From positions 4,345 to 68,344 of the forward strand of contig JAEOTP010000043.1 of the NCBI GenBank assembly GCA_016839765.1: 64,000 bases of DNA, written 5' to 3'. The DNA comes from Promethearchaeota archaeon. Lineage in GTDB: Archaea; Asgardarchaeota; Lokiarchaeia; Sigyniarchaeales; SOKP01. A model generated the notes under the pieces. That model was given only the letters and a program-made list of their open reading frames with translations, was not told the DNA's origin and ran no database searches. Positions 28,459-34,329 of this stretch are shown piece by piece. Position 1 is the stretch's first letter; each line of letters opens with the position of its first letter. Position numbers and translations under genes: made by a program.

Positions 28459-29514
28459 ATGATTGATAAAATAGTTGTGTTTGGAGGCAAAGGCGGTGTT
28501 GGAAAAAGCTCAATTAGTGCTGCAACAGCCGTAAAGCTTTCGGAATTAGTTCCCACTAAAAAAATTCTATTAATTTCATTTGATATTGCACATAATTTAA
28601 CTGACATTTTTGGAATCACTATAAACAGTAAAATAACTCCTATTACGGATAACTTATGGGCAATTGAACCTGATCCAAATCTTTATGCTGAAAAATATAC
28701 AAAAGATTTAGTGGAAAAAATGAAAACTCTTATAAAACAAATGCCTATCATTGGAAATTTACCTCAAATCGAGAAGTTTATTAATACGACATTCACAGCA
28801 GATTCTATCCCATTGGCTTTAAAAAATGCGATGTTTTTCCAAAAATTACTAGATGCAGAAGATCTTGATACTCAAGAAATTCAATTTGATATCATCGTAG
28901 CAGATTTTCCTCCCACAGGAAATATGGTGGCTCTTTTCGAAATTCCCGAAGATCAAGTTAAAGTTGTTTTGAAATATTCTTTAAATTTTTATAATTCAAT
29001 TAGAGGGGCAATTAGAAATTTCTCTAAAATGTTTAGACAGCTAATTAAACCTTTTGATGATGGAAGCTATGAAAAAAGAAGAGAATTAGGAAATGAAATT
29101 TTTAACATGGTAGTAGAACTTGAAAAACGTGGAGAAAGAATAAGCGAATTAATTCATAGTGTAGGATCCTTACGATTGGTCACTATCGCTGAAAGACCTA
29201 GTTTTGAAGAAATAAAAAGAGCACGAGATTTAACTAAAAGATATATTTCCCTTCATGCTGTTCATATAAACATGTTAACTCCCGAAGTAAAAAAATGCGA
29301 ATACTGTAAAAAGATGAGATCTAACCAATTAAAATTTACATCAGAAATTAAAAACGAGTTTAAAAAATTAAGAATTTGGGAATCAGATCGCCTTATTGAT
29401 GAACCAATTGGATTAGACGGGATAAAAAAACTCGCCACGGAAGTGTATGGAAATGTTACTGCAAATGAAATTTTGAATCCTCTAGTTAAGATGAAAAAAA
29501 TGAATAAAATTTAG
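28459..29514 (+). CDS. ArsA/GET3-family ATPase
   Basis: GGKGGVGKSS deviant Walker A, SFDIAHNL, DFPPTG, C-terminal CEYC, EPIGLDGI. Confidence 0.85.
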   Translation: MIDKIVVFGGKGGVGKSSISAATAVKLSELVPTKKILLISFDIAHNLTDIFGITINSKITPITDNLWAIEPDPNLYAEKYTKDLVEKMKTLIKQMPIIGNLPQIEKFINTTFTADSIPLALKNAMFFQKLLDAEDLDTQEIQFDIIVADFPPTGNMVALFEIPEDQVKVVLKYSLNFYNSIRGAIRNFSKMFRQLIKPFDDGSYEKRRELGNEIFNMVVELEKRGERISELIHSVGSLRLVTIAERPSFEEIKRARDLTKRYISLHAVHINMLTPEVKKCEYCKKMRSNQLKFTSEIKNEFKKLRIWESDRLIDEPIGLDGIKKLATEVYGNVTANEILNPLVKMKKMNKI

Positions 29515-30779
29515 GTCCCTTCAAGGTATCCATGGATATAATTGTATTGTTCCCCAGTCAGTTCATCAATTTCAATGCCCATTGATTGTAATTTTAAATA
29601 TCCTACTTTATTATCTATTTCTGTTGGAATCTCGATTATACCAGGTTTGAAGGACCCTTTATTTTTAACAATATACTCAGATATTAATGATTGTAAAGCA
29701 AAAGACATGTCCATTACTTCACTTGGATGACCTTCAGATAATACTAAATTAGCTAATCTTCCTTTAGCAAGTAAATAAATCTTTTTACCACCTGGCAGAG
29801 TCAATTCTTCTACATGTTTTCGTATTGGTTTTACTTCTTTAGCATAGTCATATAATTGTTTAGTTGGAATTTCAATATCAAAATGACCTAAATTCCCAAG
29901 AATGACACCATCCTTGAATGTGTCAAATATTTCAGGTTTAGGTGGAATAACATGCTTACATCCTGTAGCTGTTAGAATTACATCTGCCTCTGGAAGAGTT
30001 TTAAGAATAGGTTTTACATCAAATCCTGCAAATTTGGCTTGTAAGGCTTTTATTGGATCCACCTCTGTTACAGTCACATTTGCACCTAAACCTTTTGCTC
30101 GTAATGCCATCCCTGAAGAACAATGACCATATCCTGCAATAACAACATCCTTTCCAGCAAATAGTATATGCATTCCATATATTGCTGAAATGACCCCTTG
30201 TCCTGTGCCTAGCTCATTATCAAATTGATTTTTGCATCGCGCATCATTGACTGGAAATAATGGTACTTTTAATACACCCTGTTTATCCATAGCTCTGAAG
30301 CGTTTTACTCCGGTTGTAGTTTCCTCTTGACATCCAATTATAATACCTTCTTCAATTAATTCAGGAAATTCTTTATGTGCCGTTACAATCATATCTGCTC
30401 CATCATCTATCAAAATATTTGGTTTTGCTTTCAAGCATTGTCGTATACACCAGTAAAACTCTTCATCAGTATTTCCATGCCAAGCAAATACATTAACTCC
30501 CTCTTCAACTAAAGCTGCAGCTACATCGTCTTGGGTTGATAATGGATTGCTGCCACATAAATAAACCTCTGCTCCTCCTGCTTTAAGTGTACGTGCGAGA
30601 TTTCCAGTTTCTTTAGTAATGTGTAGGCATCCCGCGATGACCACACCCTTCAATGGTTTTTCTTTTGTAAATCTTTCACGAATAATTTTAACCGTTACTG
30701 GCATTTTTCTTTCTGCGATATATAATGCTTCTTTTCCCTTTTCAGCTAATGATTCATCAGCAACTTTATAATTTACCAT
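29511..30779 (-). CDS. ahcY: S-adenosylhomocysteine hydrolase
   Basis: CLHITKET, SNPLSTQDDVAAAL, DDGAD, EETTTG, VNDA..K..FDN, GHFD.EI, GRLANL, GHPSEVMDMSF. Confidence 0.96.
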   Translation of the reverse strand: MVNYKVADESLAEKGKEALYIAERKMPVTVKIIRERFTKEKPLKGVVIAGCLHITKETGNLARTLKAGGAEVYLCGSNPLSTQDDVAAALVEEGVNVFAWHGNTDEEFYWCIRQCLKAKPNILIDDGADMIVTAHKEFPELIEEGIIIGCQEETTTGVKRFRAMDKQGVLKVPLFPVNDARCKNQFDNELGTGQGVISAIYGMHILFAGKDVVIAGYGHCSSGMALRAKGLGANVTVTEVDPIKALQAKFAGFDVKPILKTLPEADVILTATGCKHVIPPKPEIFDTFKDGVILGNLGHFDIEIPTKQLYDYAKEVKPIRKHVEELTLPGGKKIYLLAKGRLANLVLSEGHPSEVMDMSFALQSLISEYIVKNKGSFKPGIIEIPTEIDNKVGYLKLQSMGIEIDELTGEQYNYIHGYLEGT

Positions 30780-30850
30780 TTAAAGTTCACTTTCAAAGTT
30801 TTACTTTTAATAATTTTAATTAACTAATAAAGATATTTTTGGTTAAATGC

Positions 30851-30866
30851 AAATATTTATATATTT
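30851..30866. promoter_or_regulatory. Palindromic TATA-like element in the divergent ahcY/regulator promoter
   Basis: AAATAT-TTAT-ATATTT in the 120-nt gap between divergent genes. Confidence 0.4.
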
Positions 30867-30899
30867 AATTTGACAATTAATTAATAATATACAAGAAAA

Positions 30900-32150
30900 A
30901 TGCAAAATTGTAATATTATGAGTAGTAGTAAAGATCGAGTGGAAGCCCAACACTTTATAAAGAATTTAAGTGGAAAAACCAAATTTGTTATATCAAAAAA
31001 TTCACGTGCGATAGGACTCTCTAGACAAACATATCAAAACAAACTTGATAATTTGAGATACCAAAAAATAATTACCAATTTTACAATTAATATTAATCCA
31101 AATATTCGCCCAAATAATTTGAAATATGTAATGATTGAAATAAAAACTAACCCTAAAGAACCTGAATTAGTCGAAGAACTCTTAAAAATTCCGCAATTAA
31201 GAATGTTAGATGGAATATTTGGAGATTTTTCTCTGTTTGCATTATTTATTTTTAAATCTCCCGAGGAATATTATCAGATATTGAATAACATTGATAAAAC
31301 TATGTCAAAATCATATTTTAAGAAATATCAGATAATCGAAACTATTAAGGTGTTTAAAACAAATGGAATTAGCTTGAGAGACTCAAAAATCTCATTTACT
31401 CTTGGAAAAAAAATCAATTTAAAAGAAATTGCTAAAAATTCTGCGAATATCGAATATAACCCACAGAAATTTCCGGGCGTTGTTATGAAGATAGAAGATC
31501 CAAATGCTACAATTTTGATTTTCTCAACTGGTAAAATAGTAGTAACTGAATTTAGAAAAGAAATAGGAGCTAAACAATTAATAGATAAAGTTGCCCAAGA
31601 GATAAGAAAAACAGGAATTCAACTAGAGAAGAAGATTAGTCAAAATTTTTATATTGATGAGATAGATTACCTTATTTTAAAAATATTACAAGATGACCAA
31701 GGATTAAGACCAATTTCTACATATGAAATCAAAGATTTGCTAAATGAAAAGTATAGAATGACTTTAAAGTCTCTGAACAAAGACGATATTTCACAATCAA
31801 CTATTCATAACAGAATTAAAAAACTCGAACAACAAGGTGCTATCTTAAATTATACAGTGAATTTTTGTCCAAAAAAAATAGGCTTTAAAGGCAAATATCT
31901 CCTTCGTATTAAACCAAAAGATCCATCAAAATATAATGAACTTGCTCTTAAACTGGATATGCACAAAAATATTACTGATTTATTTCGAATAGGCGAACAA
32001 TATGGATTATTTGCGATTGTTAGAGTGGAAAAAATTGAAGATTTTGCCTCTTTTATCAAGGATCTATATAGTTCAGAAGAAATTGAAGATACATACACAA
32101 GCTTTGTTTTAGATGAGTTGAAACCTTATACTAATTTTATCCTTTTTTGA
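30900..32150 (+). CDS. Tandem Lrp/AsnC transcriptional regulator with an inserted single TBP-like repeat
   Basis: Two HTH+RAM units (GLSRQTYQNKLDNLRYQKII; IDEIDYLILKIL...ISQSTIHNRIKKLEQQGAI) separated by INLKEIA...EYNPQKFPGVVMKIEDPNATILIFSTGKIVVT. Confidence 0.85.
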   Translation: MQNCNIMSSSKDRVEAQHFIKNLSGKTKFVISKNSRAIGLSRQTYQNKLDNLRYQKIITNFTININPNIRPNNLKYVMIEIKTNPKEPELVEELLKIPQLRMLDGIFGDFSLFALFIFKSPEEYYQILNNIDKTMSKSYFKKYQIIETIKVFKTNGISLRDSKISFTLGKKINLKEIAKNSANIEYNPQKFPGVVMKIEDPNATILIFSTGKIVVTEFRKEIGAKQLIDKVAQEIRKTGIQLEKKISQNFYIDEIDYLILKILQDDQGLRPISTYEIKDLLNEKYRMTLKSLNKDDISQSTIHNRIKKLEQQGAILNYTVNFCPKKIGFKGKYLLRIKPKDPSKYNELALKLDMHKNITDLFRIGEQYGLFAIVRVEKIEDFASFIKDLYSSEEIEDTYTSFVLDELKPYTNFILF

Positions 32151-32238
32151 AATTCAAATGATTTTAAATTAGTTTTCCAGAGAGTTTTTAAAAAATTTAA
32201 AGAATATTAATTTATTTACTTTAGAATCATTTTTTTAT

Positions 32239-34329
32239 TTGTATATTATGAATTATTTTTATGAAATCTTAAATAAACGGATAGGTTATTCTAGAGTCGG
32301 GAGAATCAAATTATCGAAGGAACCTAAGAAATATGTAAAGACTCCTAACGTTATTCTCCCTATGCGAAATTTTCTATTGAAAAATGTTAACTTCTTAGAA
32401 GAGTTTGAAGACCATGAAATTTTTTTAATATCAAAAGAAGTTTTCCTAAAAATAGGTTTTTTGCGCGATAAGTTTAGAAATACAGCTTTTATTTTCACCC
32501 ATACAGGTACACTACAAACATTTATAGAAATTTTAGAGAATAATATTGACATCTTCTCGGAAGATAATATTATTCTTCTAATCCCTTTCAATATCCCAAC
32601 GACAATTCTTGATGAAAATTTTGCTAAAAATGAAATCTTATATCATCTTAATTCAGTAAAAAAACTCTTAGAAAATTTTCCAAATCTTAATTTTGGGTTA
32701 AGTATTAAAATATTTGAACATCCACAATTCCTTGATCTATATAGTCCATTAATAAAAGAAAATAAAAATATTAAAATATTAAATTTAATTGACTTTTTCA
32801 CTGCTAATACTAATTTTAGAAATGTCTTGGATTTAATTATTAGCATTAAACAAAACTTTGATAATAATTTAGTTTTAATGGCTTCAGGACGGATTATCCC
32901 AAAGTATTTTCCAATTTTAATTTACTTAGGTATCGATCTTATTGATAGCTCATATTTACTTTATTTAACTTCAGAGAATTTCTATGATACAATAGAATTT
33001 TTACTTCCAATTTATAAAGTAAAGTATTTTCCTTGTTCATGTGTAGCTTGTCAAACAAAATTAAAGAACTTCCAAAGTATGAAATATTCAGATGAAATAT
33101 TTGAATATTTGTGTCTACATAATCTAATAACAGCAAAAACTTATATGAATAAAATAAAACAATATTTAAGGACAGAGGATTTCCGAGCATTTGTAGAAAA
33201 GACCTCATTTGATGATGTTCTAATCGTTTCAATATTAAAAGTATTAGATAGACAATATTTTGATTTAATAAAGTATGAGACTCCGATAACAGATTCTTTC
33301 TCGACAGTTAAATGCTTTGGTCCATCTTCTTACTATAGGCCAGACTTTCATCAATTTAGGGAGAGGTTAATAAAATATTTTTTACCTGAACCGTGGACAA
33401 AATTGATTATAATTTTTCCTTGCTCTGCAAGAAAGCCATATTCAGCATCAAAATCTCATAAGAAATTTCACAGTGTTTTAAGGAAATTTCCGGATTTCCC
33501 GGATTTTCAAGAAATTATTCTTACTTCCCCTCTTGGAGCTATACCACGACAGTTAGAAAATGTCTATCCTGTAAATTCATATGATATATCTGTAACTGGA
33601 TTTTGGGATAATGAGGAGATTGATTTAGCTTCTCAAATGTTGGTTGAACTACTTAAGAAGTATAATACAAAAATCCCTATTATATGTCATGTAAGTGATA
33701 AAGGATACAAGGAAATTGTTTTAAGAGCACAAAAACAACTGTCTAACCAATTTTATTTTACAGAGGTCTACAAAAATCTTACAACTTCTGATTCATTGAA
33801 GTCGCTGGAGAACATCGTAAATAATTTAAAAGATATTTTTATTTTAAAGGAAAATATACCAAAGTCGAAGTATTATTCAAAATCGTGGGTTCGAAAATTA
33901 GTTAAAATTGCTGATTATCAGTTTGGTTCTAATATTGGTATGAAAATCTTTTCAAAAGGAATAAGAGTCAAGAAAAATAATGTGAGTAAAAATTTAGATA
34001 TTATTGATATTGAAAACAAAAAATTATTAGGAAAATTTTTGGTTAAGACGGGTCAAATTGAATTAACATTAATTGGAGCAGAAATTTTATCAGCCATTGA
34101 CAAAGAATTTAATATTTTGGTCTTTGATGGAGATTTAATAAAGGGAAATACTCTTTTTAGACCAGGAATTGTTGAATTTAGTCAGAATCTTATCCCAAAT
34201 AATTATGTTATTATTTTGGATAAAAGTAAAAAAAGTGTGATTGGACTTGCCAAATTAATTGTTGGTTCAAATTATATAAAAAACTCAAGTAATGGAAGGA
34301 TTGCTAAAGTTTATGAAAAAATCAGTTAA
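32239..34329 (+). CDS. arcS: Archaeosine synthase alpha subunit ArcS (TGT paralog with PUA domain)
   Basis: SRVGRI...KTP N-terminus, CSCVAC...HNL Zn site, PCSARKPYSASKSH, TSPLGAIPRQLE.VYP..SYDISVTGFW, C-terminal PUA. Confidence 0.88.
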   Translation: MYIMNYFYEILNKRIGYSRVGRIKLSKEPKKYVKTPNVILPMRNFLLKNVNFLEEFEDHEIFLISKEVFLKIGFLRDKFRNTAFIFTHTGTLQTFIEILENNIDIFSEDNIILLIPFNIPTTILDENFAKNEILYHLNSVKKLLENFPNLNFGLSIKIFEHPQFLDLYSPLIKENKNIKILNLIDFFTANTNFRNVLDLIISIKQNFDNNLVLMASGRIIPKYFPILIYLGIDLIDSSYLLYLTSENFYDTIEFLLPIYKVKYFPCSCVACQTKLKNFQSMKYSDEIFEYLCLHNLITAKTYMNKIKQYLRTEDFRAFVEKTSFDDVLIVSILKVLDRQYFDLIKYETPITDSFSTVKCFGPSSYYRPDFHQFRERLIKYFLPEPWTKLIIIFPCSARKPYSASKSHKKFHSVLRKFPDFPDFQEIILTSPLGAIPRQLENVYPVNSYDISVTGFWDNEEIDLASQMLVELLKKYNTKIPIICHVSDKGYKEIVLRAQKQLSNQFYFTEVYKNLTTSDSLKSLENIVNNLKDIFILKENIPKSKYYSKSWVRKLVKIADYQFGSNIGMKIFSKGIRVKKNNVSKNLDIIDIENKKLLGKFLVKTGQIELTLIGAEILSAIDKEFNILVFDGDLIKGNTLFRPGIVEFSQNLIPNNYVIILDKSKKSVIGLAKLIVGSNYIKNSSNGRIAKVYEKIS

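Follow-up and report, generated by a model that had tools for sequence, protein, structure and literature searches.

A 64,000-nt stretch of the genome of a Promethearchaeota archaeon (Lokiarchaeia; GCA_016839765.1, contig JAEOTP010000043.1, positions 4,345-68,344), here called the window, carries on its forward strand an open reading frame (ORF; 30900..32150) for a 416-aa protein, probably 410 aa long when read from an ATG at 30918, in which a single TATA-binding protein (TBP) repeat lies embedded between two Lrp/AsnC-type units. The gene lies divergent from ahcY, its presumed target, which encodes S-adenosyl-L-homocysteine hydrolase. Similarity scores and trees show the donor of the repeat to be the N-terminal half of the lineage's own TBP, and substitution patterns show the insert to be under purifying but relaxed selection. 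We tentatively read the product as a local regulator of ahcY and of itself, with a dispensable half-TBP on a tether that would act on the neighbouring TATA-like DNA.

A TBP repeat inside a tandem Lrp/AsnC protein

The domain order had been proposed from the letters of the window alone (hereafter the original prediction), and profile searches agree with it: the middle of the chain is one true TBP repeat between two units made of a helix-turn-helix (HTH) and a RAM domain. Pfam assigns PF00352 in one stretch with E 1.3e-21 and 76.6 bits (cut-off 22.9), over residues 165-237 and profile positions 10-84 of 85. The peptide quoted at the time is encoded as residues 165-240 (31392..31619; the end then given, 31625, corresponds to residue 242). 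The whole repeat spans about residues 160-243 (31377..31628) with the topology S1-H1-S2-S3-S4-S5-H2, and in the AlphaFold2 (AF2) model of the window protein its secondary structure covers residues 164-236 at a predicted local distance difference test (pLDDT) of 59-79. A phmmer search of PDB sequences relates this part to both repeats of archaeal TBPs (1pcz, E 7.9e-27).

On the N-terminal side, HTH 1 (30927..31064, about residues 10-55) is modelled as helices 10-23, 31-38 and 42-54 with pLDDT >90, and its recognition helix LSRQTYQNKLDNL holds near-invariant S41, R42 and T44 (alignment A1). RAM domain 1, ligand-binding in type, follows at 31071..31361 (about residues 58-154), delimited by an AsnC_trans_reg stretch and by a beta-alpha-beta-beta-alpha-beta fold at pLDDT ~90. 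Behind the TBP repeat a flexible linker (31629..31655, residues 244-252; pLDDT <50 at 244-249) leads into HTH 2 (31656..31832, about residues 253-311), with recognition helix ISQSTIHNRIKKLE and near-invariant S298, Q299 and R305, and then into RAM domain 2 (31842..32123, about residues 315-408), placed by AF2 and by the best AsnC_trans_reg stretch at 338-405. In Pfam, two stretches match AsnC_trans_reg, at 47.9 bits against a cut-off of 25, and two match HTH_24, at 26.1 bits against 21.9, and HTH_AsnC-type stays at 24.3 bits, under its cut-off of 27; AF2 places three-helix bundles at residues 10-54 and 254-311. In NCBIfam, residues ~140-250 match TBP models and residues 276-413 match models of Lrp-type regulators, and since all of these scores lie under the equivalog cut-offs the protein is an ortholog of no named regulator.

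BLASTP shows the N half to be related to the C half (E 8e-06), and the C half matches the Lrp protein PH1519 among PDB sequences (2cyy, E 1.1e-11), a likeness that for HTH 2 holds by sequence as well as by fold (2cyy/2e1c; TMt 0.81-0.86, rmsd ~2 A). For half chains the best fold matches are Lrp regulators (PH1519, ST1022; TMt 0.8-0.87), and for the whole chain the fused tandem Lrp-like NirDL (4czc, E 3.9e-10; TMt 0.61 over 412 columns), a match in keeping with an intramolecular pseudo-dimer. Mean pLDDT is 85.8 for the window protein and 86.8 for an ortholog with a long linker (P0023), and both models present two HTH-RAM modules at pLDDT >90 flanking a TBP-type domain (59-84), its elements in the order S1-H1-S2-S3-S4-S5-H2, on tethers of low confidence. 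The chain thus looks like a covalent Lrp pseudo-dimer with the TBP repeat set in its inter-module linker, as far as these models go.

Comparison of 39 close orthologs bears on the start codon. Among them the residue-7 codon reads ATG 34 times and TTG 5 times; at residue 1, 21 have TTG, 11 have ATG, 3 have CTG and 4 have another codon. In 6, an in-frame stop separates the two positions. Because residue 7 always has an ATG or TTG, residue 1 varies and stops intervene, we favour 30918 (M7) as the probable true start over the first ATG at 30900.

Distribution and reality of the architecture

The architecture is not an assembly artefact, because it is shared by 37 species genomes and ~93 metagenome proteins and because contigs from other studies (X6 at 31008-31817, X5 at 31346-32300, X9 at 31494-32232) cross both domain junctions, which disposes of the chimeric assembly that the original prediction had named as a way to be wrong. 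The metagenome proteins come from a word-seeded search with 499 relatives: among the 120 matches listed, 93 are 400-443 aa long and carry a precomputed PF00352, and their sources label them as Promethearchaeota or Lokiarchaeia proteins from metagenome-assembled genomes. At 50% clustering, the wider family consists of ~310-aa tandem Lrps lacking TBP.

Across 400 genomes of the phylum, strong matches are restricted to the window's own family (code f1), and those outside it reach only E 1e-21 to 1e-25, the range of ordinary TBPs or Lrps. With the C half as query, 126 of the 135 genomes of family f1 return exactly one match, all 36 high-quality genomes (36/36) among them. A MAFFT alignment of these 126 loci shows the insert in 36 full-length orthologs and in one more that is cut by a contig end (G212), and a clean short linker in its place in 86 of the 122 full-length orthologs; three further loci are partial, two of them stopping before the insertion point and one with a short linker. 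The insert-bearing genomes belong to five genus codes (g1 10; g12 23, plus the partial one; g2, g5 and g9 one each), and the reading frame of the insert is intact in all 37. Alignment A1 has the insert in 94 of its 122 rows. The window's own genome retains one normal two-repeat TBP (L001, G000:C67); a second copy of the regulator was not found there, since beyond the regulator and the canonical TBP it yields only Lrp matches at E 3e-11 or worse. TBP-bearing and TBP-less alleles lie in the same locus and are thus positional orthologs; a comparison of orthologs with and without the insert had been proposed as a check.

Origin, donor and loss of the insert

Set against the host's own TBP, the insert scores 82 bits and ~53% identity with the N-repeat, versus 36 bits and 32% with the C-repeat. 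The original prediction had suggested placing the half-domain in a TBP tree, and in a tree of repeats the 37 inserts and 30 N-repeats of the family fall into one clade with support 98, which they share with 4 other N-repeats, 1 other C-repeat and 2 fragments of a single domain. Ahead of repeat 1 the own TBP carries a long and strongly acidic tail with runs of E, and its N-repeat ends in VVTGLRR, not TGAKS. These features account for two oddities of the insert: an acidic, helical linker of ~22 aa ahead of S1, present in 65 of 99 unique inserts, stems from the acidic tail, and the altered TGAKS from a donor that already had VVTGLRR. The NIVAS-type S1 and TGAKS motifs had both been listed as altered, and both indeed differ from the canonical forms, the second mostly by inheritance from that donor and so not as a novelty of the insert. 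Most inserts end in G-L-K/R; TEFRK occurs only in the window's small subclade. We read the event as a single insertion of part of the acidic tail plus repeat 1 of the own TBP into the linker between RAM 1 and HTH 2.

A tree of the flanks alone (122 orthologs and 6 distant tandem-Lrp outgroups; IQ-TREE quick search, LG+G4) puts all 36 TBP-bearing rows inside one 47-row clade (SH-aLRT 96), the deeper branches and the outgroups being TBP-less. Nested in this clade are 11 TBP-less rows in three groups, and the minimum on the tree is four changes, which we read as one gain and three losses. The number of complete losses is insecure, because an approximately unbiased (AU) test does not reject a single clade of all TBP rows (p 0.245). 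Truncated remnants, all N-terminal pieces of the domain, are nevertheless preserved in the metagenome proteins P0083 and P0094 (to KKIN), P0085 (to SSNI) and P0095 (to IEYN), clusters of 2-6 member sequences each with three distinct end points, and they alone are direct evidence of deletion of the insert.

Several observations on the TBPs of the family stand beside this. In most family f1 genomes the best match to the canonical C-repeat reaches 90-100% identity, and many genomes of the family give 2-4 TBP-repeat matches, suggesting TBP paralogs. In a small, non-independent sample of genus g1, insert-bearing genomes have one TBP-repeat match each and TBP-less genomes 1-3. Two short database proteins, P0258 (140 aa) and P0254 (174 aa), each show a single TBP repeat in a domain search (in P0254 Pfam marks two stretches). 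Both sit in the clade of inserts and N-repeats, and P0258 has 53% identity to the insert; they may be free half-TBPs or pieces of TBPs cut off at contig ends. The gene tree of the regulator is also discordant with the genus codes: among the orthologous loci of family f1 (L004, L010-L134), g1, g2, g5 and g12 each have alleles of several well-separated clades at the same locus, with the intergenic sequence type tracking the allele clade. Recombination between genera may thus have replaced alleles, or else the genus codes are coarse.

Residues and constraint in the half-TBP

In TBP, each repeat carries a pair of phenylalanines that kink the DNA. Both members of the pair, in the FPG and LIF motifs, had been recognised in the window protein and prove to be kept across the family, F191 in 99 of 99 unique inserts and F208 in 89. 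Other positions of the DNA face and stirrup are kept as well (P192 and G211 99, Y186 91, K/R190 95, G193 94, K/R212 94, P188 93, K/R197 80 and N187 79, out of the same 99). The best-kept positions altogether are those of the stirrup and of the concave face of S3-S5, which in TBP contact and kink the DNA; exposed positions of H1 and H2 are variable. The stirrup itself reads YNP[EQK][KR]F, the N-repeat type, and the C-repeat of the own TBP reads YEPEVF.

Among the 36 TBP-bearing orthologs, mean pairwise identity is 48% in the insert, 82% in Lrp module 1 and 77% in Lrp module 2, and the median dN/dS values (NG86, from non-independent pairs sorted into divergence bins) are 0.35-0.43, 0.08-0.12 and 0.09-0.14, respectively. 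On these ratios the insert is not neutral, yet it is clearly more relaxed than its surroundings. Uniqueness to one strain together with neutral evolution had been named as grounds for dismissing the domain; these values, along with its presence in 37 species genomes, point the other way. A complex prediction for two copies of residues 158-245 with alignment A1, run without controls, gave a score of 0.02 and a mark of 0.42 and is evidence neither way.

The divergent control region

The ahcY gene (29511..30779, reverse strand; Pfam AdoHcyase, E 2.1e-63) lies divergently upstream of the regulator in 120 of the 126 orthologous loci, and in the remaining 6 the upstream DNA does not exceed 153 nt, so that the divergent arrangement first noted in the window holds in 120 of 120 loci with enough sequence. 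An automatic flag had given 118 of these; in the 2 others the open frame merely extends into ahcY. From gene order, the regulator can be proposed to control the recycling of S-adenosylmethionine and S-adenosylhomocysteine.

The shared control region (30780..30917, assigned to neither strand) was examined in an alignment of 39 orthologous intergenic regions, and functions suggested for its conserved blocks are putative. An AT block on the ahcY side (~30811-30832), conserved among close orthologs, is followed by the block TTTTTGGTTAAATGCAAAT (30836-30854), the TATA-like ATTTATATAT (30855-30864), likewise conserved among close orthologs, and the block AATTTGACAATTAATTAATAATA (30867-30889); a block given as TTTAACATTTAATTAATAA is conserved among close orthologs as well. 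The TATA-like box and its flanking blocks fall within ~70 nt of the start. The wider site at 30851..30866, AAATATTTATATATTT, had been called a palindromic TATA-like site: it is TATA-like, as claimed, and conserved among close orthologs, and as a palindrome it is imperfect, with two 6-nt inverted arms around a 4-nt spacer. This pattern occurs 2 times in the window against 0.30 expected, a count reached by 3 of 100 shuffles. Just upstream of the likely start stands a candidate operator, ATGCAAAATTGTAAT (30900-30914), which is probably a cis element; the block TTGCAAAATTGTAAT directly precedes that start in close orthologs. As a separate observation, the stretch TGCAAAATTGTAAT at 30900-30920 is conserved as DNA.

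The candidate operator motif TTGCAAAATTGTAA, with at most 2 mismatches, has 4 matches in the window against 3.88 expected, two of them (21074 and 21185) inside a 748-aa ORF; at this chance level no regulon can be deduced. A scan of 30700-32400 with bacterial promoter and terminator models, which says little about an archaeon, gave 0 terminators and 14 sites resembling promoters where 11.3 were expected.

Proposed mechanism and alternatives

We propose, with somewhat less than even confidence, that the protein is a local regulator of ahcY and of its own gene whose half-TBP is a dispensable, tethered module acting on the adjacent TATA-like DNA. It would be a fused, pseudo-dimeric Lrp/AsnC-type regulator, single-copy and positionally fixed beside ahcY in one Lokiarchaeial (Asgard) family, which most likely binds operators in the ~120-140 bp divergent region and controls both genes with a small ligand as the signal. 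The near-invariant residues of both recognition helices are consistent with this, and the candidate operators are no more than a few turns away from TATA-like DNA. The half-TBP would then serve as an accessory module on the TATA-like, AT-rich minor-groove DNA beside the operator, using its single Phe pair as a half-saddle that adds a minor-groove contact or a bend and so strengthens or extends occupancy of the promoter. It may compete with genuine TBP and tune repression in this way, with no replacement of TBP.

A number of observations weigh against this proposal. In TBP, S1 lies at the centre of the saddle, pairs with S1' and contacts the central TATA base pairs through its Asn and Val. Those residues are gone from the insert: where the own TBP has ENVVAT, the window protein has DSKIS, and most orthologs have an acidic linker of D/N/E with a median charge of -3. 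A concave-face Val is replaced by Glu in 48 of ~70 long-form inserts, and the core of the insert is less positive, at a median net charge of +1 versus +5 in canonical N-repeats. Relative to the flanks, selection on the domain is relaxed three- to fourfold, and AF2 models the insert with no more than moderate confidence. Nested alleles without TBP have the same intergenic layout, and the insert is thus accompanied by no visible change of the promoter. Most orthologs have no such domain, and its presence in only 37 of 126, together with the truncated remnants that record its deletion, means that any role it has is non-essential.

The stirrup and exposed phenylalanines of eukaryotic TBP are also bound by proteins, and the half-TBP might instead be a protein-contact module or decoy that does not bind DNA. 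It would present its stirrup and concave face to transcription factor B (TFB), genuine TBP, RNA polymerase or the regulator's own RAM surface, which would otherwise touch TBP, and in this way sequester the basal machinery at the operator or draw it there. We consider this unlikely, although it has several points in its favour: the stirrup and exposed phenylalanines are the best-kept surface elements of the insert, its lowered positive charge and acidic linker would suit a partner other than DNA, and Lrp activators touch TBP through residues of the RAM surface, so that a fusion would follow the usual logic of joined partners (passages of PMC2995911). What speaks against it is a stirrup of the N-repeat type (YNPxK/RF) where the acidic C-repeat type would be called for, and the poor conservation of the exposed H1 and H2 positions. 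Another view, that illegitimate recombination dropped a TBP piece into a flexible linker where it is tolerated as a passenger or spacer and at most changes the distance between the Lrp modules, is to our mind improbable. One gain, absence from 86 of 122 full-length orthologs and truncated remnants speak for it, as do the low identity and raised dN/dS relative to the flanks and the low pLDDT of both tethers; but dN/dS stays well under 1 at all divergence levels, the frame is intact in every one of the 37 genomes, and a mere spacer has no need of the solvent-exposed F191 and F208 or of the kept K/R190 and K/R212.

The acidic C-repeat stirrup of TBP binds TFB/TFIIB, and its absence bears on the bolder idea of the original prediction, namely that half-TBPs of neighbouring protomers pair upon ligand-controlled oligomerisation into a saddle on the TATA-like box, either as a TBP surrogate that nucleates initiation or as a TATA blocker. 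Each insert does bring a complete Phe pair and a stirrup, and a conserved TATA-like box (30851-30866) adjoins the gene; Lrp proteins oligomerise (passages of PMC2995911), and stand-alone proteins with a single TBP domain are known (passages of PMC3597702). A homodimer of N-type repeats would, however, lack the C-type stirrup for TFB, half of the S1 at its centre is lost or acidic, the genome keeps a normal two-repeat TBP, and most orthologs dispense with the domain. We find this arrangement quite improbable and somewhat disfavoured. As for the tandem chain itself, NirDL as the top whole-chain fold match and weak NCBIfam matches to AhbB (E 7.8e-4) and AhbA (E 1.6e-3) raise the thought of a siroheme decarboxylase of the AhbA/AhbB (NirDL) type in place of a regulator. 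That is very hard to credit when half the protein scores 60-65 bits with Lrp regulator models, only 10% of the sequence is identical to NirDL, both recognition helices are conserved and the gene is arranged divergently in the manner of regulators; with AhbB at 19.2 bits against a cut-off of 125 and AhbA at 18.2 against 140, we rejected the enzyme.

Archaea have a basal machinery of eukaryotic type, and how regulators of bacterial type address it is a question still open, for which Lrp activators, which contact TBP, are the best-studied case; here half a TBP has become part of an Lrp regulator. The case is unusually testable: it is clear which donor the insert came from, where it went in and how old it is, the target region spans no more than ~140 bp, and natural TBP-less and truncated alleles at the same locus are ready controls. 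It would allow a direct test of whether a single TBP repeat works on promoter DNA, a point of interest for how TBP arose from a monomeric domain, and would also inform transcription control in Asgard archaea. If the paired saddle were real after all, the protein would be a metabolite-gated, promoter-specific fusion of a gene-specific regulator with half a general transcription factor, found in the archaeal lineage closest to eukaryotes, and a living, functional half-TBP homodimer of the kind long postulated as the ancestor of TBP. Were the domain inert, it would still be a clean example of domain gain and repeated erosion in a conserved regulator.

Relation to known systems

Archaeal Lrp/AsnC proteins, or FFRPs (FL11/PH1519, LysM, LrpA, Ptr2), have the same AsnC-type winged HTH and RAM as each half of our protein, and like many of them the gene is divergent from a metabolic gene; what sets it apart from the named regulators is two units in one chain with a TBP repeat between them. 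With TBP (PF00352) the insert shares the full repeat fold, the stirrup, the Phe pair and basic residues of S3-S5, and it differs in being one embedded and much faster evolving repeat with an N-type stirrup only and without the Asn/Val of S1. Two repeats, S1 contacts and a C-type stirrup define a TBP and all three are missing, so the protein is a regulator with a TBP domain and not a TBP. NirDL/AhbAB siroheme decarboxylases likewise fuse tandem Lrp/AsnC-like modules into a pseudo-dimer, but they are enzymes without a TBP domain, at 10% identity to the regulator and with profile scores far under the cut-offs.

That archaeal Lrp activators contact TBP, on which the original prediction had leaned, is borne out by passages of PMC2995911, in which Lrp regulators bind beside the TATA box and the TFB-recognition element (BRE) and contact TBP in trans via RAM-surface residues; the same passages report that Lrp proteins oligomerise. 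Free-standing single TBP-domain proteins are described in Euryarchaea, namely haloarchaeal TbpA and ~95-aa proteins of Thermococcales (Brindefalk et al. 2013, PMC3597702, in the passages available). The insert resembles TbpA as a single TBP domain outside the two-repeat TBP and a close kin of the host's own TBP, and is unlike it in lying inside a 416-aa Lrp chain and in Asgard archaea; in those passages the terms Lrp and AsnC have 0 occurrences each. Single TBP-fold modules that bind nucleic acid in an accessory role also occur in the N-terminal domain of RNase HIII and as TBP-like domains of DNA glycosylases (PMC3597702; PMC4132731), but these are ancient, very divergent domains of enzymes, whereas the insert was copied recently from a bona fide TBP repeat and the TBP profile still recognises it at E 1e-21. 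The 'TBP domain' in the passages of PMC11188069 refers to adaptin-like folds only.

The original prediction knew of no described regulator of this architecture, and we could not find the combination of an Lrp/AsnC regulator with a captured half-TBP described either, in a full-text search whose scope leaves supplementary domain-architecture tables outside. Automated annotation already displays the pair of Pfam domains.

Neighbouring genes

Downstream of the regulator (32239-34329 of the window), and on the same strand in 110 of the 126 loci, lies a gene for a 696-aa protein with TGT and DUF5591 domains, probably a tRNA-modifying enzyme of the archaeosine pathway; the gene may be co-transcribed with the regulator. 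On the other side, a gene for an ArsA/Get3-type ATPase (28459-29514, E 1.2e-50) converges on ahcY, the stop regions overlapping by 4 nt, and an arsA homolog is found near ahcY in many, not all, of the orthologous loci.

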